Of a stretch of 64,000 bases of DNA, positions 9,680-49,463 are shown in pieces. The notes under the pieces are model-generated. The model was not told where the DNA came from. It saw only the letters and a program-made list of their open reading frames with translations, and searched no databases. The translations under genes were made by a program, and so were the position numbers. Source of the DNA: a bacterium (GTDB taxonomy: Bacteria > Patescibacteriota > Minisyncoccia > Phycocordibacterales > UBA12088). How positions within the stretch are numbered: the stretch's first letter is position 1; every line of letters starts with the position of its first letter. The stretch covers positions 24,242-88,241 of the forward strand of contig QKEV01000015.1 in NCBI GenBank assembly GCA_003252295.1. The letters run 5' to 3'.

Positions 9680-9684
9680 TATCA

Positions 9685-10074: not shown

Positions 10075-10084
10075 TTAAAAACAT

Positions 10085-11419
10085 ATGTCGTACGTAGTGT
10101 ACAAAAAAATAGCAACACTCATGACACTATTTTCGTTAGTGTGTGTGCTTGCTCTTGGTACTGCGTTGCAGATTGTTGGTGCAGAAGAGAGTGTCAGTGA
10201 GTTACGTGATAAGATCTCTGAGAGTCAAAAGCAGCTCAAGCTCATTGAGGAAGAAATAAAGAAGTATGAGCAACAGTTGAACGAGGTTGGGGCTGAGAAG
10301 GCAACACTGCAGAGTGCTATTCGTGAACTTGACCTCTCTCGTGAGAAAGTGAAAGCAAACATTCGTGCAACCGAGGAAAAGATATCCTCAACGGATCTAG
10401 AGATTGAAGAGCTTGAACGAGAGATTTACATTAAGGAACTTGAGATAACAAAGAACATGGAGGCAGTTGCTGAGACCTTTAGAAGTGTTGATCAGACTGA
10501 GGGGCAGACGATAATAGAGGTGATACTCGGTCATGACTCTATGGCAGAAGTATGGGATGAGCTTGAAGAGCAGACGCTCTTACAAGACTCACTTCGTCAG
10601 TCAGTGCGTATCCTGAATGCTCTTAAGACTGAGTATGAGAAAGCAAAGAACAAATCACTGGTAAAACGAGGTGAGCTTCAGGAGCTGAATAACGAGTTGA
10701 CCGGTGAGCAGAAATCACTCACCAATACGATATATCAAAAAGATACACTGCTTGATCAAACAAAAAATGAAGAGGCGGAGTATCAGCGTGTTCTTGCAGA
10801 AAAGAAAGCTGCAAAGGAGCGATTTGAAAAAGAGATAAGTGATTACGAAGCAAAGCTCAAGTTTATTTTGGATCCATCAACCATACCAGCTGCAGGTAGC
10901 GGTGTTTTGAAGTGGCCGTTTGAGCCGAGTTACATGGCGGACTGTCCAAGCTACGCTTCAGCGCTTGGTAACCAGTACTGTCTAACACAGTACTTTGGTA
11001 ACACTGCATTTGCGCAGTCTGGAGCATACAATGGACAAGGGCATAATGGTGTAGACTTTAGGGCTCAGATTGGTACAAGGGTGAACGCAGCTCTTGGTGG
11101 TACGGTACAGGAAGTGAACTATATCGCAGCGCAGAACTGTCAGTATGGTAAGTGGGTTCTCATAAAGCACGGCAATGGTCTTACAACACTCTATGGACAC
11201 CTTTCATCAGTGAGTGTTTCCAAGGGACAGTCGGTTAGTACAGGACAGCTTATTGGATACAGCGGTAACACTGGCTACTCAACAGGACCACACCTACACT
11301 TTACGGTATATGCATCAGATGCTGTACAGTTCAAAGACTACACCTGTAACAGTGGTCCAACGGTAAAGGTGCCGGTATCTGCTTATACGGGATACTTGAA
11401 CCCACTTAACTACTTGTAA
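10085..11419 (+). CDS. coiled-coil M23 family metallopeptidase (EnvC-like)
   Basis: Signal/TM, roughly 250 aa of coiled coil, then a C-terminal M23 core GHNGVDFRA…LIKHGNGLTTLYGHLS…GNTGYSTGPHLHFTVY. Confidence 0.8.
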   Translation: MSYVVYKKIATLMTLFSLVCVLALGTALQIVGAEESVSELRDKISESQKQLKLIEEEIKKYEQQLNEVGAEKATLQSAIRELDLSREKVKANIRATEEKISSTDLEIEELEREIYIKELEITKNMEAVAETFRSVDQTEGQTIIEVILGHDSMAEVWDELEEQTLLQDSLRQSVRILNALKTEYEKAKNKSLVKRGELQELNNELTGEQKSLTNTIYQKDTLLDQTKNEEAEYQRVLAEKKAAKERFEKEISDYEAKLKFILDPSTIPAAGSGVLKWPFEPSYMADCPSYASALGNQYCLTQYFGNTAFAQSGAYNGQGHNGVDFRAQIGTRVNAALGGTVQEVNYIAAQNCQYGKWVLIKHGNGLTTLYGHLSSVSVSKGQSVSTGQLIGYSGNTGYSTGPHLHFTVYASDAVQFKDYTCNSGPTVKVPVSAYTGYLNPLNYL

Positions 11420-11443: not shown

Positions 11444-11722
11444 TTGTATATGGATAAGGAACAAAAAAACTCACACCAAAATGAGGTGAAGAAAGAAATA
11501 CAAATACAAGTGCCACGTGACATGAAGCCAATGTATGCAAATAGCGTAAAAATAAATGTCACTGATGAAGAAGTGATGTTGCAGTTTGCATACCTTCGTC
11601 CTGATCAAGGTACTGGTGTCTTGGTTGGCGATATGGTGCTTTCGCCAAAGCATGCCATGCGTTTTCAGAAGGCACTTGATGAGACCTTAAAGAAACACTT
11701 TACCAGGCATCTACCTGAATAG
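11444..11722 (+). CDS. DUF3467 family small protein
   Basis: …IQVPRDMKPMYANSVKINVTDEEVMLQFAYLRP…LSPKHAMRFQKALDE matches the DUF3467 pattern known to me. Confidence 0.65.
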   Translation: MYMDKEQKNSHQNEVKKEIQIQVPRDMKPMYANSVKINVTDEEVMLQFAYLRPDQGTGVLVGDMVLSPKHAMRFQKALDETLKKHFTRHLPE

Positions 11723-12116: not shown

Positions 12117-13088
12117 ATGAAGATTCATCGTAGTTCAGAGCCAATAATTGAGCACATTATTCCTTTTCTTGACTACTGTGAGGTTGAGAAAGGTCTCTCA
12201 CAAAATACGCAGAAGAATTATCACCAGTACCTCCAACTTTTTACAAAGTGGCTTAGAGAGACTGGTAATGACTCCCTACTCCCCCACCAACTTGAGGGTA
12301 GTCATATTTGGGACTATCGACTATACCTCGCTCGTAAGTATAAGACGTCGAGGGGCGACTATCTTACAAAGAAATCTCAAAACTACTACCTCATTGCTCT
12401 TCGCGCATTACTAACCTACCTCACTGATCGTGACATCGAGACACTACCTCCATCAAAGGTGAAGTTGGCAAAGCAAAAGACTGAGGAGACGATTTCTTTT
12501 CTTGAGGTACGCGACATCGAGAAGATGCTTGCGATACCTGATACAACGACGTCGGTAGGTCTTCGCAATAGAGCTATCATGGAACTGTTCTTCTCGTCTG
12601 GTATGCGTATTTCTGAGCTCGTAGCACTCGATGTGGACCAGGTATCGTTTCTTGGTGATGGTAGTACCACGAGGACCTATGAGCTCTCCATTGTTGGTAA
12701 AGGAAGTCATGTGCGAACTATTTTTATCTCACCTCGTGCTGCTGAGTGGTTGCGTACCTACATCAAGAAAGAACGTCACGATGTACACAGGCCGCTCTTT
12801 ATTAACTTCCGTTCGAACTCAAAGAGTAGACGCCTTACTGCTCGTTCTATACAGAAGATGATCTCTCGCTATGCAATACTGGCTGGGCTCTCAAAGAAAG
12901 TGACGCCACACACCTTGCGACATACCTATGCTACTGACCTACTCTCCCACGGAGCGGACCTGAGGAGCGTACAAGAGCTTTTAGGTCACAAGAATGTCTC
13001 TACTACACAGATTTACACACATGTCACCAACAAACGTCTACGTGACATACATGAAAAGTTCCATGGTGGCAGTGATATGGAGCAGTAA
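12117..13088 (+). CDS. tyrosine site-specific recombinase, XerC/XerD family
   Basis: N-terminal SAM-like domain (…FLDYCEVEKGLSQNTQKNY…) and catalytic R…HxxR…Y motifs (GMRISEL…HTLRHTYATDLL…LGHKNVSTTQIYTHV). Confidence 0.85.
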   Translation: MKIHRSSEPIIEHIIPFLDYCEVEKGLSQNTQKNYHQYLQLFTKWLRETGNDSLLPHQLEGSHIWDYRLYLARKYKTSRGDYLTKKSQNYYLIALRALLTYLTDRDIETLPPSKVKLAKQKTEETISFLEVRDIEKMLAIPDTTTSVGLRNRAIMELFFSSGMRISELVALDVDQVSFLGDGSTTRTYELSIVGKGSHVRTIFISPRAAEWLRTYIKKERHDVHRPLFINFRSNSKSRRLTARSIQKMISRYAILAGLSKKVTPHTLRHTYATDLLSHGADLRSVQELLGHKNVSTTQIYTHVTNKRLRDIHEKFHGGSDMEQ

Positions 13089-16262: not shown

Positions 16263-17111
16263 TTATTTGTCTTTACGGATTTGCTGATTAACGTATACCA
16301 TGGCGCCGTAAAGTCCACCCATGTCCTCAAGTTTTGCTTTTTTTACAGCTGGTTTATCAGGATAAATACAGAGGATGTCATCGAGGTGTTCAGCTATCCT
16401 ATCTACCGGTATTGCAGGGTCACCTACTATCATAGAACCACCAAGAACAACTGAATTTGGTGCCCAATGTACGATAGTGTTGTTGAGCATGAAGGCGAGC
16501 CAACGAGAAAGTTGCTCCCAAACCTCTGGTTCCATCACCTCGTATGCTTTTTTATGAAAACGGTGCTCAGTTGCGGTTCCAGAAAGATAGTCTTGTGCGA
16601 CAACTGAATAGCACTCAGGACATGCAGACTTGTCAAAATCAATGATCTGGTGTCCTGGTTCAAAGTTATGGACACCCTTATCAAGATGTCCGTCAACTAT
16701 TCGTGTACCACCTACTCCTGTTGAGACAGTAATATAGGCCATTATTTTATCACCCTTCCCTGCACCATGATGCGCCTCGCCAAGTCCGACAATAGCAGTA
16801 TCATTGCGCATGTATACTGGGCATCCAAGTTTTGTACTCAGGTCCTGTACGAGTGGTTTCCCAGCCCAGTCTGGAAGATTTGGTGAGTTAATGAGCATGG
16901 TGTGTTCACTATCAACCGGACCGGCCACACCACCTCCTGCAGCTTCTATTGGTGTACCATCAGCGAGTTCCAAAATCTTTTCTGTAACAAGCGCTATACC
17001 TTCGTTATAGTCTTTTGGTGTGTCGAACTTAACAGGATCATCAAAACTGTTGCCATCGAGTGATATGACGACACGTGATTTTGTTCCTCCAATATCAAAA
17101 TATGCAAACAT
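16263..17111 (-). CDS. ROK-family sugar kinase (glucokinase-like)
   Basis: MFAYFDIGGTKSR… N-terminal ATPase motif, GLGEAHHGAG, and a Cys/His zinc motif (CPECYSV…H). Confidence 0.8.
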   Translation of the reverse strand: MFAYFDIGGTKSRVVISLDGNSFDDPVKFDTPKDYNEGIALVTEKILELADGTPIEAAGGGVAGPVDSEHTMLINSPNLPDWAGKPLVQDLSTKLGCPVYMRNDTAIVGLGEAHHGAGKGDKIMAYITVSTGVGGTRIVDGHLDKGVHNFEPGHQIIDFDKSACPECYSVVAQDYLSGTATEHRFHKKAYEVMEPEVWEQLSRWLAFMLNNTIVHWAPNSVVLGGSMIVGDPAIPVDRIAEHLDDILCIYPDKPAVKKAKLEDMGGLYGAMVYVNQQIRKDK

Positions 17112-17116
17112 ACATG

Positions 17117-18415
17117 TTATTTATCGAGTAATCTACGGACCTCTTTTTTATACATTTCAACTGCTGGTTGATCAAAAGCATTTACATCAAATATTTGAGC
17201 AAGGTACATGATAGCTACCATGTGTAGTGCCATGAATGCTCCAAGTTCACGCTCATTTATCTCAGCTAGTTCGATCGAAATGTATGGCAAACCATGGTTT
17301 TCGTATGTTTTTTGTACGCCACGTAGTATAGCGGTCATAACATCACCATCTTGCTTTTCTTCAAGTACTTCAAGCATGAAAGGTGAATCTTTTATGAATG
17401 ACCCACCTTTTTTATTCCAGACACTTGGAGCACTTACAAAGGTAGTAAAGCGATCATTGTGTCCTCCAAACACGAGTTGTCCAACTGAATGTAGGTCTAT
17501 AGAACCGATCTCAACTGTGGGTGTAAAGCCAATCTTGGTACCATCTTTACGCTCCTTACCAATAGATTCGGCAAGTAGTTGGCGGTACCACTTTCCAAGT
17601 GTCTCAAGTTCAGGGTGCCATATGAAGAGTTCGTGTACACGTGAACCTTGCAAGTATGCCTCAAATAGGTACGCTGCTATAACAGCAGCACTGGAAGCTT
17701 TTTCGGGTGCAACAGATGCACTTATGGCACGTTGTGCGCCAAGCATGAATGCTTTTGTGTCAAAGCCAAGTAGAGCGAGTGGTACAAGGCCGACAGCAGT
17801 AAAGACTGAAAAGCGTCCACTAACCATACTTGGGAAGCTGATGACTGATATGTTTTTTTCTGTTGCTGACCTTGCCAGTGGACTTTCTGCATCGGTGATA
17901 ACAATGGTCTGTTCACTAGCTTCTTTGGTGCCATAATGTTGCACCAATATCTCATAGAGTATATTTGCGTTTGCAATGGTTTCGGTTGTGTTTCCTGATT
18001 TACTTATCACAACGAGAGCAATCTCTTTTGGATTCTTGTGTGAGGTGACAACCTCGTTTAAGGCAGCTAGCAGTTTTGGTTCGATAGTATTTGCGGTGAT
18101 GAGTCTTGGTGTTGCCTCACTTGTAATGTCATGATGACCACGAAGTGCATCATATACTGCACGGGTACCCATATCACTTCCACCAATACCAACAAGGAGT
18201 ACTGTTTTTACATCAGATCCAAATCTCTTCAACTCCTCCAGTACCTCGTCGTGCCTTTTGGTGTCAAAAGGAATTCTGAGGGATGCTTCAGGATTTGAGT
18301 AGGTCTCGTCAAGAATGACTTGCTCAAGGTGTTTTTTGTAGGTTTTAAGCATCTGCAGGTGTGCGAGCACCATGTTCTCTGAAGCTTTATCTGCATGTTG
18401 TGTATGTATTTCCAT
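17117..18415 (-). CDS. pgi: glucose-6-phosphate isomerase
   Basis: GIGGSDMG, SKSGNTTET and GGRFSV motifs of the PGI family. Confidence 0.9.
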   Translation of the reverse strand: MEIHTQHADKASENMVLAHLQMLKTYKKHLEQVILDETYSNPEASLRIPFDTKRHDEVLEELKRFGSDVKTVLLVGIGGSDMGTRAVYDALRGHHDITSEATPRLITANTIEPKLLAALNEVVTSHKNPKEIALVVISKSGNTTETIANANILYEILVQHYGTKEASEQTIVITDAESPLARSATEKNISVISFPSMVSGRFSVFTAVGLVPLALLGFDTKAFMLGAQRAISASVAPEKASSAAVIAAYLFEAYLQGSRVHELFIWHPELETLGKWYRQLLAESIGKERKDGTKIGFTPTVEIGSIDLHSVGQLVFGGHNDRFTTFVSAPSVWNKKGGSFIKDSPFMLEVLEEKQDGDVMTAILRGVQKTYENHGLPYISIELAEINERELGAFMALHMVAIMYLAQIFDVNAFDQPAVEMYKKEVRRLLDK

Positions 18416-40482: not shown

Positions 40483-40790
40483 GTGTTTTCTCCATACATT
40501 TTTTTGAGTTAAACTACAATTTATACTTCAAGTTTCGCATGTTGGTTGCCAACCAGTATGGGCAGGTCCCCCCTTCCCTGTGTATTAACGAACAAACCAG
40601 AGGCCATACTACCCGGTATGACTCTATTATGTCAAACAAAACGTGTGTTTTTATGTTGCAGAATATGCCGTGAACATGTACAATCATCCCTAGTTTCGAA
40701 AGAAACAATACGTTCTGCGCCGTGTCCTTCGTGGCCATACATAACTTTAGTGAAGTGGGAGTAAAGAAGGAGTTGCGTAGAAACCAGCAT

Positions 40791-40863
40791 TCCGCGGTAG
40801 CTCAGCTGGTAGAGCGATCGGCTGTTAACCGATTGGTCGCAGGTTCGAGTCCTGCCCGCGGAG
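40791..40863 (+). tRNA. tRNA-Asn (anticodon GTT)
   Basis: Cloverleaf read by hand: acceptor TCCGCGG/CCGCGGA; D-arm GCTC-AGCTGGTA-GAGC; anticodon arm ATCGG-CTGTTAA-CCGAT; variable loop TGGTC; T-arm GCAGG-TTCGAGT-CCTGC; discriminator G. CCA is not encoded. Confidence 0.9.
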
Positions 40864-40867
40864 CAAC

Positions 40868-40916
40868 TAGAAAAGCACTATTCTTAGTGCTTTTCTGCGT
40901 ATAAGGGGAACGGGAA
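40868..40916 (+). repeat. copy 1 of a 49-bp direct repeat (contains terminator hairpin AAAAGCACTATTCTTAGTGCTTTT)
   Basis: TAGAAAAGCACTATTCTTAGTGCTTTTCTGCGTATAAGGGGAACGGGAA recurs at 45903-45951 with 3 mismatches. Confidence 0.85.
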
Positions 40917-40940
40917 TAGAACTTTTGTTATACTTTGCGT

Positions 40941-41489
40941 ATGAAAGCACCAAATATTGAAACAAACTCTTACCTAATAAGACCCTTTAAAACTAGCGAT
41001 GCGGAACTATGGCAGAAGTGGGATATAGACCCAGAAGTTCAGGCATTTATGCCTGAACCATTTAATGAAGTGCAAGATATTGAAGAGCAATACAAATACA
41101 TTGAAGAATGTGAAGCTGATGAAGAAGGGTGCTACTGGTCAATTGAGACTAAAAACGGAACTACTATCGGTACGGTGGCACTTACAGAGATCAATGAGTA
41201 TCACAAAATTGCCAACCTTGGTATAGTGATCGGTGATAAAAACCACTGGGGCAAGGGAGTTGCAACTGAGGTAATTACTGCCATAGTTGCACACGCATTT
41301 GAACAACTACATCTTTGCAGGATCAGTGCTGAAGTTGAAGAAGGGAACGTGGGAATGATAAAGGTTTTTAAAAAGGTTGGGTTTAAACAAGATGGACTTT
41401 TGGAATCAGCACGTCTGAAGAATACAAAACGTATCAATGTCCACCATTTTGGTTTTGTTAAACCTTCATGCAAAGTTAAATCAAAATAA
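40941..41489 (+). CDS. GNAT-family N-acetyltransferase (RimJ/RimL-like)
   Basis: …IGTVALTEINEYHKIANLGIVIGDKNHWGKGVATEVITAIVAHAFEQL… acetyl-CoA binding motifs. ATG at 40941; the ORF-track start is TTG at 40935. Confidence 0.8.
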   Translation: MKAPNIETNSYLIRPFKTSDAELWQKWDIDPEVQAFMPEPFNEVQDIEEQYKYIEECEADEEGCYWSIETKNGTTIGTVALTEINEYHKIANLGIVIGDKNHWGKGVATEVITAIVAHAFEQLHLCRISAEVEEGNVGMIKVFKKVGFKQDGLLESARLKNTKRINVHHFGFVKPSCKVKSK

Positions 41490-41590
41490 TCAGATTACTT
41501 TTCCCTCCATCGCCCGAATGAACATCAACTGATTGTACATGCCCGTCATGTACTTTCCGTCACCCAGAATGCTTATAATAGCGTCATGTT

Positions 41591-41632
41591 CGCGGAGCTT
41601 GATAAAGCACGTTCAGAAATGAACGTGCTTTT
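41591..41632 (+). repeat. tRNA-3'-end-like element (CGCGGAGCTTGATAAA) plus hairpin AAAGCACGTTC-AGAAAT-GAACGTGCTTT
   Basis: Same GCGGAGC core as the tRNA-Asn 3' end, again followed by a hairpin and T-run. GCGGAGCTTGATAAA recurs at 44592-44606. Confidence 0.6.
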
Positions 41633-41646
41633 GGTATAGTTTGGGT

Positions 41647-42441
41647 ATGGAAGCGATACTTATAACAATAGGACTATTTGTCAGAACCATACAACTACTA
41701 TTACCTGGTTTCTCAAAAATTGATGTTGCAAATATCTTTATTGCAATCGTTGCTGGATTATTTCTTGCGGGCAAGGCAGGAGCAATATTAGCTTTTCCAT
41801 TTGGTTTTGCCCTAATTATTGCTTTATTTTATAAAAATAAAATTTTACCAACAATTACCGAAGGGACTTTATTTTTATACGCTGTAGTTGCAACATATAT
41901 TGCTGTCAGGGACATTGAGTCATTTTCAGCACTATCTAGCACTTATTTAATATTGCTTTTGTTTCTTTCACTTTACGTACTTGTGGGTTTTTACCTTTGT
42001 GTAACAAAAACGAAAGTGCCATCCTTTTTGCAAATCATTTTAATGGTATTTTTTCTTTCAAATGCAATTTATATCGCGTACCAAAGTAGTCTAGTGTTTC
42101 TCATTACTGATAGTTCACCTTTAACACATTTATTGATTGGATATTTTGGTCTCTATTTTATAAGTCACATTTTGTATATCCTCGCCTTAATCCCACTTCC
42201 TGGGAAACATCAATCTTTTAAAGATAGGATGAAAGAGGTGAGAAAACACGCTCAATTCCTAGAAAAGAAATATTCGGATAAAGATATCAATATTAAAAAT
42301 ACTCTAGGTCTTGTTGCTGTAATTATATTGGCCTTCTCCTATAATTATTTCTACAATGATTGGATTACTAGTGTTGTATTACTCCTTATTATAGGTGGCT
42401 ACTTAGCCGCACCAAATAATTTTAAGTTATTAAGCAAATAA
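41647..42441 (+). CDS. polytopic membrane protein, hypothetical
   Basis: About 7 predicted TM helices. No confident family match. Confidence 0.5.
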   Translation: MEAILITIGLFVRTIQLLLPGFSKIDVANIFIAIVAGLFLAGKAGAILAFPFGFALIIALFYKNKILPTITEGTLFLYAVVATYIAVRDIESFSALSSTYLILLLFLSLYVLVGFYLCVTKTKVPSFLQIILMVFFLSNAIYIAYQSSLVFLITDSSPLTHLLIGYFGLYFISHILYILALIPLPGKHQSFKDRMKEVRKHAQFLEKKYSDKDINIKNTLGLVAVIILAFSYNYFYNDWITSVVLLLIIGGYLAAPNNFKLLSK

Positions 42442-42477
42442 TTTATTTTACTCAATTCAACCTCTATCTTTTTCCAA

Positions 42478-42549
42478 TTCAGAGTTCTGAACTTGTCCAG
42501 CACGGGAGCAATAAGAAAAAACAGTATCGTCTTGATACTGTTTTTTCTT
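42478..42549 (+). repeat. island repeat unit R1 (TTCAGAGTTCTGAACTTGTCCAGCACGGGAGCAAT) plus perfect 16-bp-arm hairpin
   Basis: AGTTCtGAACT palindrome followed by a degenerate tRNA 3' end (CGGGAGCAA), then AAGAAAAAACAGTATC-GTCTT-GATACTGTTTTTTCTT. Homologous units occur at 43297-43332 and 49373-49404. Confidence 0.75.
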
Positions 42550-42680
42550 ATCTCGCTATCATGGTCACGGACTCGAACCTATGGACCACATTTTCAAGGA
42601 GTGGAGCGACCATGAAAATGTAGGATCTCGACCATAGGGAGAGGCGAGTCCTGCTTGTGCGTCGAAACGAAGTGAAGGAG

Positions 42681-42723
42681 TGCCCGCGGAGCAATTGACA
42701 ATACCACTATCTAGTGGTATTGT
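42681..42723 (+). promoter_or_regulatory. tRNA-3'-end copy (TGCCCGCGGAGCAA) fused to a sigma70-like promoter TTGACA-N17-TATTGT with an embedded operator palindrome
   Basis: -35 TTGACA at 42695-42700, -10 TATTGT at 42718-42723, 17-nt spacer. Perfect IR AATACCACT-ATCT-AGTGGTATT at 42700-42721. The AAGGAGG SD and ATG at 42756 follow. Confidence 0.7.
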
Positions 42724-42755
42724 TTGTTTAGTTAGCCTTTTGAAAAGGAGGAAGG

Positions 42756-43172
42756 ATGGAAACAATATATGCGATACTAAAAACATTAAAAAGTTTTGGG
42801 TCAGCAAAAGATGTTCCTTTTAGAAAAAGGTCACCTCAGGAAATCATCAGCTCGGGAGTATTTAGTGGATGTTCTGATGTAGCACTTGCTTTTGCGTATC
42901 TGTGCAAGAGTTCAGAGATAAGGGTTCATATTGTTGATACTTTTGACAAAATAATGTTCTCCAAAACCCTAGGTATGGAAGGTATAACAGGGCATGTGTA
43001 TTGTCAGGTATTTAATTCCGATGACACCTGGGTCATGGTTGACCCAACAGTAGGTGCCGTTGATGTTGATATCTGCTCGGATGGACGTGTCCCTATTGTG
43101 TCATACCTAGACAACAGTAAGCTCCTTTCATATGAAGAACTGTGTTTTATAAAAAGTACCTTTCAGGACTAG
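42756..43172 (+). CDS. transglutaminase-like (Cys-His-Asp) core mini-protein, 138 aa
   Basis: Cys in SGCSDVALAFAYLCK, His in GHVYCQVF and Asp in WVMVDPT, in the order and spacing of the transglutaminase-like cysteine peptidase core. Confidence 0.5.
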   Translation: METIYAILKTLKSFGSAKDVPFRKRSPQEIISSGVFSGCSDVALAFAYLCKSSEIRVHIVDTFDKIMFSKTLGMEGITGHVYCQVFNSDDTWVMVDPTVGAVDVDICSDGRVPIVSYLDNSKLLSYEELCFIKSTFQD

Positions 43173-43173
43173 C

Positions 43174-43215
43174 CCGCCCACAACGAAAACCGTTGGAGGG
43201 CGGTTTTCTTTTTAT
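43174..43215 (+). terminator. rho-independent terminator
   Basis: CCGCCCACAACG…CGTTGGAGGGCGG hairpin followed by TTTTCTTTTTAT. Confidence 0.7.
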
Positions 43216-43296
43216 GCAAAGGAGTTCTGAACTACTCTATTTTTAAATAACTCAAAAAACATACCTTGTTTCAATTCACGTTGTATTCTCTTCCAG

Positions 43297-43360
43297 TTCA
43301 CAGTTCTGAACTTGTCCAGTACGGGGAGCAATTGACAATACCACTATCTAGTGGTATTGT
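43297..43360 (+). promoter_or_regulatory. island repeat unit R3 plus promoter/operator module (second copy)
   Basis: TTCACAGTTCTGAACTTGTCCAGTACGGGGAGCAAT, then TTGACA (43332-43337), N17 containing AATACCACT-ATCT-AGTGGTATT, then TATTGT (43355-43360). Near-identical to 42681-42723. A further AGTTCTGAACT lies at 43213-43223. Confidence 0.75.
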
Positions 43361-43428
43361 TTTGTTTGGCTAAAGTCTGTTCCTACGGTAATTGAATCAC
43401 AAATCATTTAGCATGCTTGGAGGAATAA

Positions 43429-43938
43429 ATGAAAAGTATAGAATATACTGAAATTGCTGGTCATGATAATCTGAATAAGTTTTTAAACGACAGAAATAAA
43501 ATTATCTTAGAATGCAACGATGCGATTCGTAAAGTTGCTAACAAGTTAATTATCAAAGCGAAAGATGAAAGGATTACACTCTGCCGGTTACCTTTGAAAG
43601 CAGTGTTGTTTCGCACAAAAGAAGACCGTGAAGCTAAACGTAATAACACTTTCATCAACTATGGTGAGTATCATGTGGATGAACTTGAACTGTATTACGT
43701 GGAATTTTTTGTACACAACGAAGCAAGAGTTGCTGGCAATATAGGACTCATTATTTCTGGAAAACAGCCAGATCGAACTACAGGTGATTTTAGTTATATT
43801 TGTGGTTTCGAGGATTTTGATTACGTTGATTTGTCATGGGGAAAGAACTGGTTCTTTTTAAACAAAAATGACTATTTTACGTTTAAGGAAGTAGTCTTGA
43901 ATTTTAAAAAGGAACTACCCTCTTGCGTAGTGCAGTAA
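43429..43938 (+). CDS. hypothetical protein (169 aa), island cargo
   Basis: GGAGG SD. No recognisable family. Confidence 0.45.
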   Translation: MKSIEYTEIAGHDNLNKFLNDRNKIILECNDAIRKVANKLIIKAKDERITLCRLPLKAVLFRTKEDREAKRNNTFINYGEYHVDELELYYVEFFVHNEARVAGNIGLIISGKQPDRTTGDFSYICGFEDFDYVDLSWGKNWFFLNKNDYFTFKEVVLNFKKELPSCVVQ

Positions 43939-43952
43939 AATACGTACAAAAA

Positions 43953-43990
43953 ACCTGTCTAGTAGCCTGTCTCTGGACAGGTTACTTTTT
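43953..43990 (+). terminator. rho-independent terminator
   Basis: ACCTGTC…GACAGGT hairpin followed by TACTTTTTAT. Confidence 0.6.
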
Positions 43991-44015
43991 ATATACACGT
44001 TCGAACATCGTCCCA

Positions 44016-44056
44016 CGCTCGGAGCAATTGACAATACAGTAGTAAAATGACATTGT
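44016..44056 (+). promoter_or_regulatory. island unit R4: CGCTCGGAGCAAT plus TTGACA and a degenerate -10
   Basis: Same GGAGCAATTGACAATAC junction as R2 and R3. The downstream -10 region has diverged (CATTGT/TTGTTA). Confidence 0.5.
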
Positions 44057-44125
44057 TAATTTTGGATAATTTCTGTTTTTTACTATGTAATAAATTTAAA
44101 AAACTTTTGAAAACATGAGGTTGTT

Positions 44126-44296
44126 ATGAATCGACGAAGTGACAAGTTTTGTGCTCCACCACCAACATCTCGTTCCTATCCAGGTAAGGGTAGTTATCAG
44201 ATGGAATGTTTAAGGCGCAACGCAATAATCAAACTTCAGTTTGTTGTTGTAGCAGTTGTCATAGTAGCTATTTTGGTTACCCTGCCTTTTTTGTAA
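44126..44296 (+). CDS. 56-aa small protein with C-terminal TM helix (MNRRSDKFCAPPPTSRSYPGKGSYQMECLRRNAIIKLQFVVVAVVIVAILVTLPFL)
   Basis: Below the ORF cutoff. GAGG SD 5 nt upstream. Tail-anchored topology. Confidence 0.35.
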   Translation: MNRRSDKFCAPPPTSRSYPGKGSYQMECLRRNAIIKLQFVVVAVVIVAILVTLPFL

Positions 44297-44528
44297 GTTT
44301 TGGTCGTTTGTATGTTTGTAGACAGAAACTATTAAGCCGCTTAGGAAGATGTAATCCAAGCGGCTTTAATTTGTAAAATATAACTGAATAATGGGGTCTG
44401 ACCCCGTTTCATAAAAGGTGACTGACCCCTTTTTTCCTTGCTGTTTCTCTCTAACAAGGACCAGGAAAATTTTCTGGCCCTTTTGCGTTACAAGTGTCTT
44501 AGGGGTAAACCGCTTTGTTTAATCAATG

Positions 44529-44584
44529 AATGAACATGCCATGCCTGCCCGGCACCCTTTGTGGTGTCTCGGGGCATGTTCATT
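44529..44584. repeat. perfect 12-bp-arm inverted repeat (AATGAACATGCC…GGCATGTTCATT) with a 32-nt GC-rich loop
   Basis: Lies in the 350-nt non-coding stretch 44297-44647, which also holds hairpins at 44334-44366 and 44393-44436. The tRNA-3'-like TGCGGAGCTTGATAAA follows at 44591. Confidence 0.6.
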
Positions 44585-44647
44585 GGATGCTGCGGAGCTT
44601 GATAAAAAAACATATAAAATAAATGTTATTGGTGTATTATAGGATAT

Positions 44648-44776
44648 ATGAAATTTGAAGAAGTGCATTACCAAGAGCCGGTTCCAGAAATGGAAAGTTT
44701 TGAAAAAGTTGACGACTTTCTTGAAAATGAAGAAGGGGTCCTTGCAACTCTTCGTAAAAAAACAAAAAAGAGGTGA
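44648..44776 (+). CDS. 42-aa acidic small protein (MKFEEVHYQEPVPEMESFEKVDDFLENEEGVLATLRKKTKKR)
   Basis: Protein-like frame. Its stop TGA sits inside the GAGGTGA SD of the next ORF, consistent with translational coupling. Preferred over the overlapping K-rich frame that the ORF track starts at 44655. Confidence 0.35.
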   Translation: MKFEEVHYQEPVPEMESFEKVDDFLENEEGVLATLRKKTKKR

Positions 44777-44780
44777 TAAC

Positions 44781-44948
44781 TTGGAAGCAGTAAATGTAGA
44801 ACACAAAGAAGATTTAGTTCTTGGTTTTGTTGGACCTCTAACTGATGAATTTTCTTCACAGATGCAACCGCACAATGCAGAAAATTTTGGCTGCGTAGAC
44901 TGTATTGATTGTGTATGTGATGTAGGTCCTTGCGATTGCGACACTTAA
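44781..44948 (+). CDS. 55-aa Cys/Asp-rich peptide (…SQMQPHNAENFGCVDCIDCVCDVGPCDCDT), candidate modified-peptide precursor or metal-binding peptide
   Basis: TTG start 5 nt after the GAGGTG SD. Six Cys alternating with Asp in the last 18 residues, preceded by a leader-like region. Confidence 0.4.
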   Translation: MEAVNVEHKEDLVLGFVGPLTDEFSSQMQPHNAENFGCVDCIDCVCDVGPCDCDT

Positions 44949-45032
44949 GTCGCTTAAAAGTTAATCTCAACATACTGGCCATTTTCTTTGGCCAGTATTA
45001 TTTTATAATCAAATAAACATTTTAAAAAGATA

Positions 45033-45722
45033 ATGAGCAAGGTCATATTTGGCACTAATAAAGACAAAGATTTCAGAAACCATCTTATACAGCTGAGATG
45101 GCGAAATAAAACTGGTTTTACGTATTCTCCAGCAGAAAGTGAGTACTTTGATTCTCTGGAGAGATGTAAGGATGAGCTTGAGCAATGGAAGCTGTTTGAA
45201 GATTACTCACGTGAGTATTATTTGGAGGACAATAAACAGACAATTAATTCTGTTTTAAGTTATTTTCAAACATTGTGGAATAATGTTGAAGAAGTGTATG
45301 TTAAAAAAATGGAAGAAATGCACAATAAAGTATTTCCTTACAAAACAGTTTATGGTTATTTGTCTACGTCGCCAGGTGGCTGGGGCTTCAATTTAAATAA
45401 AAAAAACCCTTGGTTTGCATGTCCCAATAAAAAGAATGACAAGTTCCTAAAAGTTGCAATGCATGAACTCATGCATGGTTTTTTTATTGAATATTTTAGA
45501 GATGACTTAAAAGAAAAATACCGTTTAACTGACAACAAACTTTGGGATATTCAAGAGTCATTAACGGTGCTTCTAAATATTGAATTAGGTGATATTCTGC
45601 CTCACAAAGACTTGGGGTATCCACAACACAAAGAGTTACGCGAAGAAGTTAAGTCGGTATGGTTAGAGACAAGTGATATTGATGAGGTCCTGCGACGTGC
45701 AAGTCAATTTACTAAAGGGTAA
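45033..45722 (+). CDS. HExxH-motif protein, putative zinc metallopeptidase-like (229 aa)
   Basis: AMHELMHGFF is the only recognisable motif. No signal peptide. An A8 homopolymer lies in the CDS at 45399-45406. Confidence 0.5.
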   Translation: MSKVIFGTNKDKDFRNHLIQLRWRNKTGFTYSPAESEYFDSLERCKDELEQWKLFEDYSREYYLEDNKQTINSVLSYFQTLWNNVEEVYVKKMEEMHNKVFPYKTVYGYLSTSPGGWGFNLNKKNPWFACPNKKNDKFLKVAMHELMHGFFIEYFRDDLKEKYRLTDNKLWDIQESLTVLLNIELGDILPHKDLGYPQHKELREEVKSVWLETSDIDEVLRRASQFTKG

Positions 45723-45902
45723 TACCTTTGACTATTTTGTTTATACAAACGAAATGTGTTTGTAATTATTAAAAACTAATTTTAGTTGTTCTCTAACGAT
45801 AAATTTTGTTGTTGTAATGCTGATGCAACAGGACTTCTTTCCAGTTTTCTTTCCCATTCTACCCAGTTCACGTTTATAAAGGTGCTTAGGTGTTGGAGCC
45901 CT

Positions 45903-45951
45903 TAGAAAAGCACTATTCTTAGTGCTTTTCTGCGTATAGGGGGAACAGGAT
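45903..45951 (+). repeat. copy 2 of the 49-bp direct repeat
   Basis: 46 of 49 positions identical to 40868-40916. Preceded by a GGAGCC tRNA-end-like remnant. Confidence 0.85.
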
Positions 45952-46059
45952 TTGAACCATACTAAATACTATATAGTAAATATAACAATATTATGCTAAA
46001 ACACAGGTAGAAAAATAAATGACCACAATACCTAATATCAAATATGGAGGTTGTTGCAT

Positions 46060-47232
46060 ATGCAAACTGATCAAGTTTTGTCGGCACTGTACGAGTGTTT
46101 TCGTGGGAAGGGTTGGAGGTTATATACCTGCACTACATGTAATAATCTCATTTTCTCAAAAAATGCGAAAACACTTTGTTGGAGAAGGAAAGAATGTGGG
46201 CAAGAAAAAAAGTTTTTGTCATTACCAAAACAGAAAGCGATGGTAGTTCCGGGGCAAATCAAGGATGTAATAGAAAAAGCTGCTACAAAAAAGGGTTACA
46301 ATCGCGTGGAAAGTATTCCACTTACCGCTAACCATGGGAAAACAGATTTAATTATTGCTGGTGTACAGCTGTATAACGATGTAATTCATGGGAAAGCAAT
46401 ACAATCTTGCTTTCCTGACCGTTGTGTAATATCTCAACCGTGTGTACGGATGCAGTTTGCTGATAAGGTTGGTAAAGTAGATGGTATTTCGACCGCATTT
46501 GTAAACACATGTACCGAGCACGTTGGAGCTACGGTTGTCGAACATGCATTTGCCGTGGATTTTTGGCTAGACGTGCTTTCATGCCTTGGTTTGCATGTGT
46601 GTGATGTGTCGCTGGTATATCGTACAAAGAAACGAAATTGGGGGACAGGTGATTTTCTTTCCCATGATTTATTTTTTATGTATGGTGATTTAGAACTGGG
46701 TGATGCTTCCTATGCAGTTGTCCCAACTAGGTGTGCAGGTGGTTCAGGGGTATTGCAGATTAGTGACGTAGGCTTTGGGGTAGAACGAATCGGATGGGCA
46801 ATCAATAAAACTGATACGTACTATGACGTGTTACAACCATGGGACATGCAGTATACGACAGAAGTTAACGATCTGTACCGTACACTTACGTTACTTGCTA
46901 TGACCGGTGTTAAACCTGGACCAAAAGGTGCAGGGTTACAGTTTCGTCGCCTTGCAAAACAATTATACCTTCTGACTCCAAACATCTTTTCATTTGGTCT
47001 TGTAAGTTACTATTTTCGGTATTGGGGTTCGTTTACGACATGTCTTTGTGGATTAGAAGTTTCTTCTTCTGTAATTTCTCGCGAGTATGATAGGTTGCGT
47101 AACAATGGGATCGCAAGTAACAATAATTGGCCTGCCCCAAAAAATGATGAGAGTACAGAAGAATACCTTGAAAGAATGGTGTATAGTAAAATAGTAACTC
47201 CCAGTGAGTTGCGTAAGATGTACACACCATGA
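46060..47232 (+). CDS. alanyl-tRNA-synthetase catalytic-core paralog (class IIc fold) with N-terminal Cys-rich zinc-ribbon-like segment; lacks tRNA-recognition, editing and C-Ala domains
   Basis: Collinear with the AlaRS N-domain. VIEKAATKKGYNRVESIPL…DLIIAGVQ compares with F…KGH.V.SS.LVP.NDPTLLFTNAGM. SQPCVRMQF compares with TSQ.C.RAGG. ISDVGFGVERIGWAINKTDTYYDVL compares with VDTGMGLERLAAVLQ…SNYD.DLF (motif 3). About 390 aa against about 870 aa for AlaRS. ATG at 46060 with a GGAGG SD. Confidence 0.6.
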   Translation: MQTDQVLSALYECFRGKGWRLYTCTTCNNLIFSKNAKTLCWRRKECGQEKKFLSLPKQKAMVVPGQIKDVIEKAATKKGYNRVESIPLTANHGKTDLIIAGVQLYNDVIHGKAIQSCFPDRCVISQPCVRMQFADKVGKVDGISTAFVNTCTEHVGATVVEHAFAVDFWLDVLSCLGLHVCDVSLVYRTKKRNWGTGDFLSHDLFFMYGDLELGDASYAVVPTRCAGGSGVLQISDVGFGVERIGWAINKTDTYYDVLQPWDMQYTTEVNDLYRTLTLLAMTGVKPGPKGAGLQFRRLAKQLYLLTPNIFSFGLVSYYFRYWGSFTTCLCGLEVSSSVISREYDRLRNNGIASNNNWPAPKNDESTEEYLERMVYSKIVTPSELRKMYTP

Positions 47233-47918
47233 AAAAACAAAAACTAAAGCTATACTTGTCTGGGGGTGGTGACGAAACACAGTCATTCGCCCTCGACAAG
47301 CTTTTTTTTACTTCAATTCCTGAAAATGGAAAGGTTTTGTATATACCTATAGCTTTACGTGGTCACAAACTCTTTTTAAATGCACATATGTGGTTTTCTG
47401 GTGTAGTAAAGAAACATGGTCGTGATGATATACAGGTTGTGCGTTGTGATGATGTTGACACAATAACAATTAAGAAAATATCTCTGTATGATGCTGTGTA
47501 TATAGGTGGAGGAAATACTTGGTCACTTATAAAAGAAGTATCTGAAGCTGGTTTTGATGAAGTGTTAAAAAAATATATAACAGAAGGAGGGGTGGTATAC
47601 GGCGGGAGTGCTGGTGCAATTCTTCTTGGCACTTGTATTGATACAAGTGATGATGAAAATGTTGTGAAATGGAATAATATAAATGGATTAGATCTTATTT
47701 CTCCTTACTCAGTGGTTTGTCACTATACGGAAGTCATGGAGAAACGATATTCTGGTTGGGCAAACAAACATGGACCTATTATTTGCATTCCTGAAAATGC
47801 AGGGATGTACACAGAAGGTAACAGTTTGGTAAATTGTGGTAACGGTATGATAACCGTTTTTGATACTTCTGGAAAAAAAATAGAATACTCTGCAAATGAG
47901 TGCTTAATGTTCGAATAA
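47229..47918 (+). CDS. peptidase S51 family (dipeptidase E / cyanophycinase-like)
   Basis: VYIGGGNTWSLI, GGSAGAILL (Ser nucleophile) and a downstream His, collinear with PepE. Start overlaps the AlaRS-like stop (ATGA). Confidence 0.75.
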   Translation: MKKQKLKLYLSGGGDETQSFALDKLFFTSIPENGKVLYIPIALRGHKLFLNAHMWFSGVVKKHGRDDIQVVRCDDVDTITIKKISLYDAVYIGGGNTWSLIKEVSEAGFDEVLKKYITEGGVVYGGSAGAILLGTCIDTSDDENVVKWNNINGLDLISPYSVVCHYTEVMEKRYSGWANKHGPIICIPENAGMYTEGNSLVNCGNGMITVFDTSGKKIEYSANECLMFE

Positions 47919-47923
47919 ACTGT

Positions 47924-47952
47924 AAAAGCACTTCGGGTATCGAAGTGCTTTT
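47924..47952. terminator. bidirectional terminator
   Basis: AAAAGCACTTCG-GGTAT-CGAAGTGCTTTT between the convergent S51 gene and the SAM-synthetase gene. Confidence 0.8.
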
Positions 47953-47968
47953 ATTGTCAAACCAGTTC

Positions 47969-49225
47969 TCAGTAAAGGATGCATTTACCTTCAATGATTT
48001 CCTGAGAAAGAACAGAAAGGTTTTTCATAGTATCAATGTAAATATCTTTCACTGTATCTTCGTGCCTCCCGAGTAGTTTGGGTCTGTTTATTTCTATAGA
48101 AGCCATCCAAGGATCATCCAGGTTTCTGCCCATCTGGGATGTGATAAACACCTTACATTCTGTGTTTATTGCATTGAATACATTGTCCGCAATTCTTTGT
48201 GCTGCTGCTGTGTACAGTTTTCCAACATGGTAAATAGGATTTTTGCCACAACATGCCTCCATACTCATGTTTCTTGTAAACGGGATAATGCCGTTATGTC
48301 GGTTCCCTCGACCTACCACACCTTCGTCACCGCTTTCGATGGCACTTCCTATGGCAGTTAAGTAAAAATCTTGACGAGCCGCATTATCACGAGTATTTAA
48401 CTCAACTGAGTAGTTGTAGTACGGATACATTGTCTTTGCGTGTCCCAGTATTATCTCTGAAACCTCTTGAAGAGATTTGCGATAAAAAACCAGGGAGTTT
48501 GTATACGCAGCGACAAATGGTATACATGCGGTGATTTTTACGTTTCTGCCATTTCTTACTGACATAACCTTGATGTCAGTACCAACATAAGGATGCTCCT
48601 TTTTAAAACCCTTAAATTCGTTGAGTTGGTTTTCGATAGCAATGGTAAGTAGTTCTATTTCGCTTAACGGAGCATACGCCACAGCAGTTGAAGTGTCGTT
48701 GGAGCGGAGATCATTGTCGTGATAACGGGCAAATTTTATGTTCGGTACTGTAAAAAAATGCCCGCGTTCATTTTTTGTATTACCGTCCTTGCTATGTACA
48801 ACCCCCGGTCCGGGTGCCATATGAGTGTTGTCAATAATTGTTAGCCATTGTTCAACGTCAAGGAGCGGCATTACAGCTTTAAAGTGTTTCTTTGCAGCAT
48901 TGCTCGCGATATCAAGATAAGGTACCTCGCGTCCTTCAAAGTCTTTAGTAAAACGACAGTTCAGGTATAGGTGTATCGGACGTTCCATAAATCCTTTACC
49001 AAACTGAACGTGTGAGGCTCCTCCAGCAAGTGCAATTTTGTCCACCATGTGTCGTAACACCACACCGTGTTCATTAAGAGTGTATTGTGAATATGCCTGT
49101 GAAATTTTTTCAGCAATTGTGTCACAGAGTGTGTCTGGGTGACCTATTCCCTTTCGTTCCACCACCTCAAACGGTGTTTCTGAGCAAAGTGTGTTTTGTT
49201 GAGCAATAACTGTAAAATTGTTCAT
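47969..49225 (-). CDS. S-adenosylmethionine synthetase, archaeal type (MAT)
   Basis: ERKGIGHPDTLCDTIAE N-terminal motif and overall collinearity with the archaeal AdoMet synthetase family, not bacterial MetK. Confidence 0.8.
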   Translation of the reverse strand: MNNFTVIAQQNTLCSETPFEVVERKGIGHPDTLCDTIAEKISQAYSQYTLNEHGVVLRHMVDKIALAGGASHVQFGKGFMERPIHLYLNCRFTKDFEGREVPYLDIASNAAKKHFKAVMPLLDVEQWLTIIDNTHMAPGPGVVHSKDGNTKNERGHFFTVPNIKFARYHDNDLRSNDTSTAVAYAPLSEIELLTIAIENQLNEFKGFKKEHPYVGTDIKVMSVRNGRNVKITACIPFVAAYTNSLVFYRKSLQEVSEIILGHAKTMYPYYNYSVELNTRDNAARQDFYLTAIGSAIESGDEGVVGRGNRHNGIIPFTRNMSMEACCGKNPIYHVGKLYTAAAQRIADNVFNAINTECKVFITSQMGRNLDDPWMASIEINRPKLLGRHEDTVKDIYIDTMKNLSVLSQEIIEGKCILY

Positions 49226-49372
49226 CGTATCTCTCCTTTAGGTTTCCTTGATTGTGAGCTTCTCTTTTCTGCACCTGTAATAACACGTTTATTTTACTAT
49301 TTCAATAGTAGAGCTTTGTCTTCGGTAAGTGCAATACATAAACTTTGTATATTTTTTTGCACTGTCTTTCAC

Positions 49373-49437
49373 TTCACAGTTCTGAACTTGTCCAAGAGTG
49401 GGAGTAAAGAGATTAAGCACCAGAAATGGTGCTTTTT
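49373..49437 (+). repeat. island repeat unit R5 (…TTCACAGTTCTGAACTTGTCCAAGAGTGGGAG…) plus hairpin AGCACCAGAAATGGTGCTTTTT
   Basis: Third full copy of the AGTTCTGAACTTGTCCA element with a degenerate tRNA-end segment, again followed by a terminator-like hairpin. Confidence 0.7.
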
Positions 49438-49463
49438 AATATCAGCTTAAAAATTACGATATA

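Follow-up and report, generated by a model that had tools for sequence, protein, structure and literature searches.

That mobile elements integrate into tRNA genes, and that islands accrete there in tandem, is familiar. SSV-type ('suicidal') integrases of archaeal viruses and plasmids, such as those of SSV1, pTN3 and pT26-2, carry the attachment (att) site within their own open reading frame (ORF); their gene is split when the element enters a tRNA gene, and tRNA genes gather captured elements over time (PMC8371274; PMC7253208). Self-disrupting recombinases are considered exclusive to archaea in a 2021 review (PMC8371274). Tandem cassettes resembling the staphylococcal cassette chromosome (SCC) have direct att repeats at their boundaries, and many of them lack a recombinase and are mobilized in trans (PMC11470126); in the mycobacteriophage BPs, a phage ORF contains the attP site in its 3' part (PMC4557955). 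Here we describe a 64-kb stretch of the patescibacterial contig QKEV01000015.1 (hereafter the window, the numbering of which is used for positions), in which the block at 40.8-49.4 kb is very probably an accretion array of site-specific insertions by elements that encode a large serine recombinase (LSR) and target the tRNA-Asn(GTT) gene at its 3' end.

The sole tRNA gene of the window, tRNA-Asn(GTT), is located at 40791-40864 on the plus strand (ARAGORN and Rfam, 72.7 bits) and is followed by a block of small co-oriented ORFs, with a GC content of 0.33-0.38 across 41-48 kb versus 0.42-0.46 in the flanks. Shuffle controls and scans of the whole window confined all repeat units to 40.7-49.5 kb on the plus strand, with no copy elsewhere in the 64 kb. 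The sequence AGTTCTGAACTTGTCCAG occurs at 42483, 43302 and 49378 (with 0-1 mismatch; 0 of 100 shuffles reach three copies), GGAGCAATTGACAATAC at 42688, 43325 and 44021, and the 15-mer GCGGAGCTTGATAAA exactly at 41592 and 44592. A copy of the tRNA end, TGCCCGCGGAGCAA, identical in 14 of 14 positions, is found at 42681, and the likeness runs on into the trailer hairpin (local score 35 versus a shuffle maximum of 23). The stretch 40860-40922, comprising the tRNA end, the terminator and some 30 further nucleotides, is repeated at 45895-45957 with 89% identity (family D3; score 67 versus a shuffle maximum of 25), and a terminator scan placed a hairpin and T-run 3' of several repeat copies. A first-pass annotation made from the sequence alone had read the block as a serial insertion or cassette array anchored on tRNA-Asn, and its core idea holds; it had also pointed out the 14/14 copy and the hairpins with T-runs. 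Two of its supposed copies, GGAGCC at 45895 and GTGGGAG at 49397, agree with the tRNA in no more than 5-7 nt and count as real only because longer repeats contain them.

The longer unit shared by several copies has the form …AGTTCTGAACTTGTCCA-N4-GGGAGC, and a scan of metagenomes for AGTTCTGAACTTGTCCA-N3-6-GGGAG returned at least 120 contigs, so it is a widespread conserved element, not a local oddity. Related metagenome and genome loci are denoted here by L-numbers, and locus counts refer to the 120 matches listed. Clustering of all ORFs revealed as the commonest neighbour a protein of 500-600 amino acids, present in 29 loci, with the Pfam domains Resolvase, Recombinase and Zn_ribbon_recom and a match to a PHROG 'integrase' family (1e-66); by its domain content, this protein is an LSR. 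In L033, L045 and L089 the intact LSR ORF reads through GGGAGC (codons W-L-P) into …DKFRT…LQN-stop, and in L041, L083, L147 and L137 the LSR stops 2-14 codons after …WL (alignment A1). The units of the window are homologous to the C-terminal coding sequence of the LSR (tblastn E-values of 4.7e-7 to 2e-4; nhmmer E-values of 1e-11 to 1e-22, the element profile having been built from 106 unique elements). Because of the tblastn matches to the C-terminal 36-39 residues and the profile match, the shared unit is identified as the detached, antisense 3' end (the last ~36 codons) of an LSR gene plus the left half-site of attP. A minus-strand 32-codon 'conserved peptide gene', (V/L)DKFRT(L/A)NW…LQN-stop, was discarded as a candidate, its frame being the C-terminus of the LSR ORFs.

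The attP-type (P) left half-site takes the form …GTTCTGAACTTGTCCA-N4-GG, with the core GGAGC in the W-L-P codons. P sites, GTTCTGAACTTGTCCA-N4-6-GGAGC or in the form GTTCTGAACTTGTCCAGTACGGGGAGC, span 26-27 nt, compared with 22 nt for the attB-type (B) site GTTCGAGTCCTGCCCGCGGAGC. An inner TCC lies ~10 nt before GGAGC in both, as seen by eye, and an outer GTTC…GAA motif lies 4-5 nt further out in P than in the tRNA. In serine integrases, the attB and attP half-sites share an inner motif, and the motif of the zinc-ribbon domain (ZD) lies 5 bp further out in attP (PMC3783163). The 4-5-nt shift fits this ZD rule, so the alignment of the unit with the T-arm and acceptor half of the tRNA, which had been noted before, would be a genuine half-site similarity. 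The resemblance itself is real, and its earlier interpretation as a regenerated tRNA copy gives way to that of an LSR tail with an attP half-site. The repeat copies listed earlier are likewise real, although a fourth P-type site, at 43999-44025, had been missed.

How the LSR gene comes to be divided can be followed in five complete integrated elements (L041, L083, L147, L148 on a 1.18-Mb contig, and L151 in the NCBI metagenome-assembled genome GCA_040384205.1). In each of them tRNA-Asn abuts an antisense LSR body, the ORF of which runs 9-15 nt into the tRNA, and the detached tail (the P arm) is found at the opposite end, 6.8-9.0 kb from the tRNA. In the 7,412-nt contig L153, which is circular or tandem as judged by a terminal overlap of 43 nt, the LSR gene is intact and codes for 539 amino acids. 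More than 1,500 LSR homologues were retrieved at E<=1e-20, mostly in the split state. Among the best 120 of these, all at least 70% identical, the exact DKFRT motif is missing in 117, and about 10 keep a variant of the intact tail; most tail-less homologues end 0-13 residues past …WL (…SPNWL) with RG-stop, RR-stop or RGQDSNLRPID, i.e. antisense tRNA T-arm sequence. In three natural pairs that are 99-100% identical, homology ends exactly after GGGAGC; beyond this point one member has an LSR body, its partner a trailer-type arm. Of 28 internal homology breakpoints, 6 are no more than 25 nt away from a core (1.3% expected by chance). Exchange at a fixed core is thus supported both by the breakpoint pairs and by the attL and attR sites bounding the five complete elements. 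Asn(GTT) accounts for 17 of the 27 tRNA genes in the 120 loci, and every one of the 22 cores of P sites (P-cores) in tRNA-Asn loci is downstream of the tRNA and on its strand. We conclude that attP lies within the LSR gene, ~36 codons before its stop, that tRNA-Asn is the target, and that crossover occurs in or beside GGAGC; with attP inside the gene, integration splits the recombinase gene. Integration at the tRNA sequence …GTTCGAnTCCnnCCCGCGGAGC joins the antisense LSR body to the tRNA as attL, and the last ~36 codons end up at the opposite extremity of the element, where they form a P arm of ~110 nt beside the displaced tRNA trailer, as attR.

The same evidence bears on the possibility that the repeats are not mobile at all, being a family of regulatory, terminator or promoter motifs or the product of local duplication or gene conversion at the tRNA. 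Several copies do overlap good promoter (TTGACA-17-TATTGT) and terminator predictions, but the unit occurs in at least 120 unrelated metagenome contigs in a constant relation to tRNA-Asn and LSR genes, with breakpoints exactly at the core, which makes this explanation very unlikely. Readings of the unit as a dif-like Xer module or purely as a promoter or operator were ruled out by the LSR homology and by the Xer-like identity of the gene at 12117-13088. This gene had been offered by the first-pass annotation as the nearest tyrosine recombinase; nothing links it to the units, and the enzyme that is linked to them, the LSR, is absent from the window. Two scans of IMG/VR with 17-mers, made with a viral origin in mind, gave chance single matches only, with no similarity in the flanks.

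The Pfam domains of the LSR end near residue 335 of ~500-590, and since the split point lies downstream of them, the integrated LSR may stay active. A role of the 36-residue tail in regulating direction or stability is speculation on our part. Autonomous elements measure 7-9 kb; besides the LSR they encode an excisionase-like HTH_17 protein and hold restriction-modification or Abi genes together with further cargo. The HTH_17 genes, 1-4 genes upstream of the LSR, are candidate recombination directionality factors (RDFs) by virtue of their domain and position. The interiors of L148, L151 and L153 encode Dam-type or N6/N4 methyltransferases, EcoO109I- or Tsp45I-type endonucleases and AbiEii, and the elements also carry two recurrent proteins of ~360-430 amino acids (clusters 1 and 3) without a Pfam or PHROG match. 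L148 contains a pair of tRNA-Asn(GTT) genes, both on one strand and separated by 5.5 kb (11534-11609 and 17084-17158 of that locus), one holding the 8.6-kb LSR element and the other apparently free. In L122 a more distant LSR of the cluster (8619-10427) is antisense against tRNA-Ala(TGC) at 8700-8773, so relatives with other tRNA targets may exist. The LSR contigs are named Patescibacteria and have bacterial gene contexts.

Many loci contain more than one unit. At least two co-oriented P-cores are present in 34 of the 120 loci, yielding 51 intervals with a median spacing of 1,068 bp (interquartile range 678-1,673 bp). One or two ORFs usually lie between P-cores, 72% of ORF residues are on the element strand, and in seven loci a P-core follows tRNA-Asn at a distance of 464-794 bp. 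The P arms of arrays have often been shortened to 60-80 nt with the half-site kept, an LSR-family ORF fragment was detected in a single interval (L091), and modules flanked by a duplicated core and right arm, as found in the window, occur also in L112, L059, L081 and L056. Cargo families common to the window and other arrays include the GNAT, 229-aa and S51 proteins described below. The short spacing, the scarcity of LSR fragments, the trimmed arms with half-sites and the shared cargo together argue for small recombinase-less cassettes, not random debris.

Such arrays might nonetheless be nothing but a graveyard, i.e. decayed tandem full-length LSR elements with their backbones deleted, in which the modules were never mobile and the P half-sites are young scars. 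Indeed, the cargo lying immediately interior to the P arm of full elements is co-oriented (L084, L067, L052 and L060), so that backbone deletion could leave cargo followed by a P-core, and tandem full elements exist, as in L041, where the P-core is followed by a second LSR body. The degenerate state of several junctions in the window fits as well, and so does the lack of circular mini-cassettes in the related loci, where L153, a full element, alone has a terminal overlap. On the other hand, random deletion should leave pieces of the backbone, and apart from the LSR fragment in one of the 51 intervals no other recognized backbone family was found in any; the trimmed arms that keep the half-site and the short modules directly behind tRNA-Asn also speak against decay, and duplication of the core and right arm on both sides of a module has the look of unit insertion. 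We therefore regard the graveyard as a possibility to be kept in mind, though not the probable one.

Features of the island are listed in table 1. It contains four P-type half-sites (all on the plus strand), one pseudo-tRNA (B-type) site and two pairs of duplicated core and right arm. The cargo modules comprise 1-3 genes; a terminator-like hairpin stands behind most modules, and several have a promoter-like sequence in front.

Table 1. Positions of att-related elements, junctions (J) and cargo in the window, in 5' to 3' order, and of pseudo-tRNA (U) elements in related loci.
Feature	Position	Strand	Description
Exact 14-mer AGTGGGAGTAAAGA	40754-40767; 49397-49410	+	Brackets the tRNA and the whole island
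B-type left half-site and core GGAGC	40843-40864	+	Last 22 nt of tRNA-Asn, GTTCGAGTCCTGCCCGCGGAGC; B-type pattern match
Core and right arm 'a'	40860-40922	+	tRNA trailer, hairpin 40869-40896, then GGGAATAGAACTTTTGTTATAC, then first cargo gene; first copy of the 63-nt direct repeat D3
GNAT acetyltransferase gene	40941-41489	+	Cargo; Pfam PF13302, 1.5e-29; homologues in arrays L101 and L102
J1	41510-41632	+	Unclassified left arm GAATGAACAT…CATGTTC, then GCGGAGCTTGATAAA (41592-41606), then hairpin/T-run like the tRNA trailer
264-aa protein	41647-42441	+	Cargo; membrane protein by eye; no Pfam, NCBIfam or PADLOC match
J2	42444-42510	+	Truncated P arm (antisense LSR 3' tail); P-type half-site 42484-42509, core GGGAGC 42504-42509
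Perfect hairpin	42511-42551	+	18-bp stem and T-run; right arm after J2, before the pseudo-tRNA; inverted repeat I6, 100% complementary
U2 pseudo-tRNA	42552-42694	+	Long-range stem GGACTCG…CGAGTCC around a structured insert; ends GAGTCCTGC-[28 nt]-CCCGCGGAGCAA; B-type, 14/14 tRNA 3' end
Core and right arm 'd'	42688-42724	+	GGAGCAA-TTGACA-N17-TATTGT; palindrome AATACCACTATCTAGTGGTATT in spacer; family D1
Transglutaminase-like protein, 138 aa	42756-43172	+	Cargo; Pfam PF01841, 1.6e-4, just below cutoff; terminator 43185-43208
J4	43216-43331	+	Near full-length P arm; antisense frame …LDKFRTVNWKRIQRELKQGMFFELFKNRVVQNSFA-stop; P-type half-site 43303-43329
Core and right arm 'd', second copy	43325-43361	+	Direct repeat of 42688-42724; D1, inverted repeat I2; promoter and terminator scans
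169-aa protein	43429-43938	+	Cargo; no known family; terminator 43961-43986
J5	43999-44060	+	Minimal P-type half-site GTTCGAACATCGTCCCACGCTCGGAGC (43999-44025), then degenerate arm 'd' TTGACAATACAG…CATTGT
56-aa ORF	44126-44296	+	Cargo; hydrophobic C-terminal stretch by eye; no family match
J6	44520-44606	+	Long hairpin GAATGAACATGCC…GGCATGTTCATT, then GTTCATTGGATGCTGCGGAGC-TTGATAAA
Cargo module	44648-45722	+	42-aa ORF; 55-aa Cys-rich ORF 44781-44948; terminator 44972-44998; 229-aa HELMH protein 45033-45722
J7	45895-45957	+	Second copy of core and arm 'a', a duplicated tRNA trailer; left arm 45863-45894 with a P-arm-like beginning, CCAGTTCAC
Two-gene module	46051-47918	+	393-aa protein like the alanyl-tRNA synthetase (AlaRS) catalytic domain and 229-aa S51 (PepE/cyanophycinase-like) peptidase; bidirectional terminator 47923-47953
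S-adenosylmethionine (AdoMet) synthetase, archaeal-type	47969-49225	-	Pfam PF01941
J8	49333-49405	+	Truncated P arm; P-type half-site 49379-49405, core GGGAGT; then hairpin 49415-49434
U elements in L143	3142-3290; 4374-4505
U elements in L056	4909-5041; 5857-5986; 10990-11073
U element in L132	196-333
U element in L135	190-330
U element in L067	4417-4545

Four junctions carry recognizable P-type half-sites. J2 is supported by nhmmer against the element profile (E=3.6e-14), by tblastn to LSR C-termini and by the P-type pattern, and J4 by an nhmmer match covering profile positions 23-135 (E=1.5e-22) and by tblastn to the C-terminal 36-39 residues of the intact LSRs of L033, L089 and L045 (E down to 4.7e-7). 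J5 has the P-type pattern with 27-nt spacing, for which none is expected in shuffles, and contributes the third D1 member. J8, beyond the AdoMet synthetase gene, matches both the profile (E=1.9e-11) and the P-type pattern. Its core is the outermost P-core junction and coincides with the second copy of AGTGGGAGTAAAGA; the first copy is just upstream of tRNA-Asn, where the ~300 nt before the tRNA (40483-40790) are non-coding.

As to the right arms, a core-hairpin-GAAC module like that of arm 'a' follows cores in many related loci. Arm 'd', readable both as a promoter and as a hairpin with a T-run according to the respective scans, stands directly 3' of a genuine tRNA-Asn in L112, and in the window its two direct repeats (42688-42724 and 43325-43361) flank the cassette at 42756-43172. 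Modules of cassette size, mostly co-oriented, with single genes and parted by a repeated element of ~60-120 nt, recall an integron-type cassette array, namely a cluster of attC sites lacking integron integrases (CALIN), with attC sites and the IntI tyrosine recombinase. However, the repeat is homologous to an LSR coding tail instead of forming an imperfect R''-L''/L'-R' palindrome, there is no IntI in the window, several modules have their own promoter-like sequences, and the anchor is a tRNA end, not attI; an integron is thus an extremely improbable explanation.

The junctions J1 and J6 are of a different kind. J6 has a B-like spacing by eye and seems to resemble a degenerate tRNA 3' half, the 15-mer repeat being its support otherwise, and the alignment of J1 with the tRNA end and trailer is weak and does not by itself exceed shuffles (score 20 versus a maximum of 22). 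The junctions 41592 and 44592, and perhaps that at 45895, could come from another integrase system, for example a classical tyrosine-integrase island duplicating the tRNA 3' end, at the same tRNA-Asn hotspot: tyrosine integrases classically target tRNA 3' ends, and the left arms 41510-41591 and 44520-44591 are alike, differ from the LSR tail and both keep the tRNA-identical GCGGAGC. Yet the only tyrosine integrase in the window is the Xer-like gene, the antisense 36-codon open frame of J1 (41510-41606) has no homologue among 5.8 billion proteins or in the related loci, and the right arms of both junctions resemble the same trailer hairpin family, so a mixed origin strikes us as rather unlikely. 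The two arms (41510-41606 and 44520-44606) were also considered as a second arm family and set aside, having neither a match in the related loci nor a homologue in the protein collection. The left arm of J7 (45863-45894) was tried as a P arm, and the profile gave no support. A Logan contig ends at J7; the breaks of Logan contigs at 40836 and ~45900 are consistent with assembly interrupted by repeats, and no weight was given to them as signs of excision.

The cargo of the window has no PADLOC defence match. The 55-aa peptide has a Cys-rich C-terminus, …GCVDCIDCVCDVGPCDCDT, and its 229-aa neighbour, with homologues in the arrays L132 and L031/L079, bears an HExxH-type motif (HELMH), so that 44648-45722 looks like a module of a small peptide and a metalloprotease. 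The genes of the 46051-47918 module overlap, the N-terminus of the 393-aa protein is AlaRS-like (TIGR03683, 1.8e-10, far below cutoff), and homologues of the S51 peptidase occur in the arrays L061 and L086; by these similarities, the pair is possibly a module of an amino-acid ligase and a peptidase. The motif TTTTG(G/T)TATA(C/G)TTTG(C/G)GTATG is shared by 40918-40943 and 41624-41649 (family D5). It reads as a box of the extended -10 type, placed 6-7 nt ahead of the ATG in each of the first two cargo genes, and a Shine-Dalgarno sequence is absent. The closeness of the box to the ATG without a Shine-Dalgarno sequence suggests leaderless transcripts. Similar GAACTTTTGTTATA(A/C) boxes stand 3' of cores in many loci.

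The U2 element is one of a family. U elements are conserved over ~130-150 nt and have acceptor-like and T-stem-like helices, a hairpin in place of the D arm and no anticodon arm; the T loop holds a two-hairpin insertion with a GTAA loop, and the element ends with the tRNA-Asn 3' sequence. Compensatory changes affect 22 of the 34 predicted pairs, and a homologue of U2 with such changes lies at 100-222 of L055; the folding z-score of U2 is only -1.1. No Rfam family other than tRNA matched the U elements or the window at gathering or permissive thresholds. In arrays the elements sit between the core-hairpin and the promoter, the order core-hairpin-U recurring in L056, L143, L132 and L135, and in L132 one stands in tandem behind a genuine tRNA-Asn. 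The region upstream of the tRNA in the window, tried as a further pseudo-tRNA, has no significant similarity to U2.

In the accretion array that we favour, modules would have been inserted serially and would now be recombinase-less cassettes or remnants, which, if still moving, would use an LSR supplied in trans. The right arms of the cassettes resemble the tRNA trailer, so a junction of tRNA, core and right arm would still be attB-like and could accept further insertions. Several observations count against this reading. As the first-pass annotation had remarked, no recombinase lies inside the island (neither an LSR nor an integrase in 40.8-49.5 kb), and tblastn detected neither an LSR gene nor a fragment of an LSR body within the 64 kb. 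Unless a directionality factor is present, canonical LSRs do not act on attL or attR; textbook chemistry therefore does not account for serial insertion at a tRNA that is already occupied, nor for how cassettes without an LSR arose. The lack of circular mini-cassettes mentioned above points the same way, as do the left arms of the 41592/44592 pair, which have no link to any recombinase, and that of J7, which the element profile does not detect and which is not recognizable as the shared unit. The outermost P arm would, moreover, put a housekeeping-type AdoMet synthetase gene within the 'inserted' DNA. Finally, a search of genome contigs with this synthetase found no close relative, the nearest homologue being 58-60% identical, and the organism thus represents an isolated lineage.

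Going further, we can sketch, with considerable reserve and as a conjecture rather than an expectation, an integron-like gene capture by LSRs in Patescibacteria. Here tRNA-Asn and the tRNA-derived, structured U elements would serve as landing pads; single-gene cassettes, each with a promoter of its own and a P half-site of ~30-110 nt, would insert serially, their trailer-like right arm regenerating the pad; and the self-splitting LSR of the 7-9-kb elements would act in trans, its tail recording or regulating the integrated state.

A self-splitting LSR lifestyle is widespread in ultra-small bacteria (Patescibacteria, also known as the candidate phyla radiation or CPR) and apparently undescribed so far. 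No earlier description was encountered in the literature searched, in which a survey of horizontal gene transfer in Patescibacteria makes no mention of tRNA, integrase or recombinase, although this is no proof of novelty. What is unfamiliar is a serine recombinase with attP in its own gene, in bacteria, on a large scale and in another superfamily than the archaeal tyrosine integrases; recombinase-less cassette arrays bounded by LSR half-sites, which point to a gene-capture platform in very small genomes, where the routes of gene gain are poorly understood; and a conserved structured pseudo-tRNA element inside arrays. There is also a practical side, as genome sequences directly reveal both attB and attP for this LSR family, and the detached C-terminal tail may be a natural switch.

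Compared with known systems, the island has several features of a classical tRNA island, namely insertion at a tRNA gene's 3' end, direct repeats with the tRNA end (D3) and atypical GC content, but the cognate integrase expected at one end was not found in 40.8-49.5 kb. A recombinase with the Resolvase, Recombinase and zinc-ribbon domains of an LSR att system occurs in related loci, not in the window. Integrons and CALINs share with it a fixed platform followed by small, mostly co-oriented cassettes, each ending in a recombination site; they differ in that here there is no IntI and no attC structure, several cassettes have their own promoter-like sequences (integron cassettes being mostly promoterless), the recombination site is an LSR half-site and the platform a tRNA end. 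SCC and SCCmec (CcrAB/CcrC) are alike in LSR-driven insertion at a conserved gene's 3' end and in tandem arrays, yet the resemblance is functional only: they target rlmH in Staphylococcus and Enterococcus with cassettes of 20-70 kb and unsplit ccr genes, whereas here the target is tRNA-Asn and the cassettes measure 0.5-2 kb. The integrases of A118/LI, Bxb1 and phiC31 have the same domain architecture, short att sites and the ~5 bp shift of the outer motif, and a small HTH gene is nearby in the present elements; however, attP inside the integrase ORF is not reported for LSRs of phages and integrative and conjugative elements in the literature searched, nor are recombinase-less single-gene arrays. 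In the integration-dependent immunity of BPs and its relatives, integration shortens the C-terminus of a protein and alters its behaviour, but there a tyrosine recombinase serves as integrase and the repressor gene is the one divided, whereas here it is the serine recombinase gene that is split. The closest parallel in lifestyle is offered by the SSV-type integrases, with an att site in the recombinase ORF, a gene fragmented on integration and a tRNA target, all of which are found here (alignment A1, the tail survey and L153); those, however, are archaeal tyrosine recombinases divided into substantial N- and C-terminal parts, and the present enzyme is a bacterial LSR that loses its last ~36 residues.

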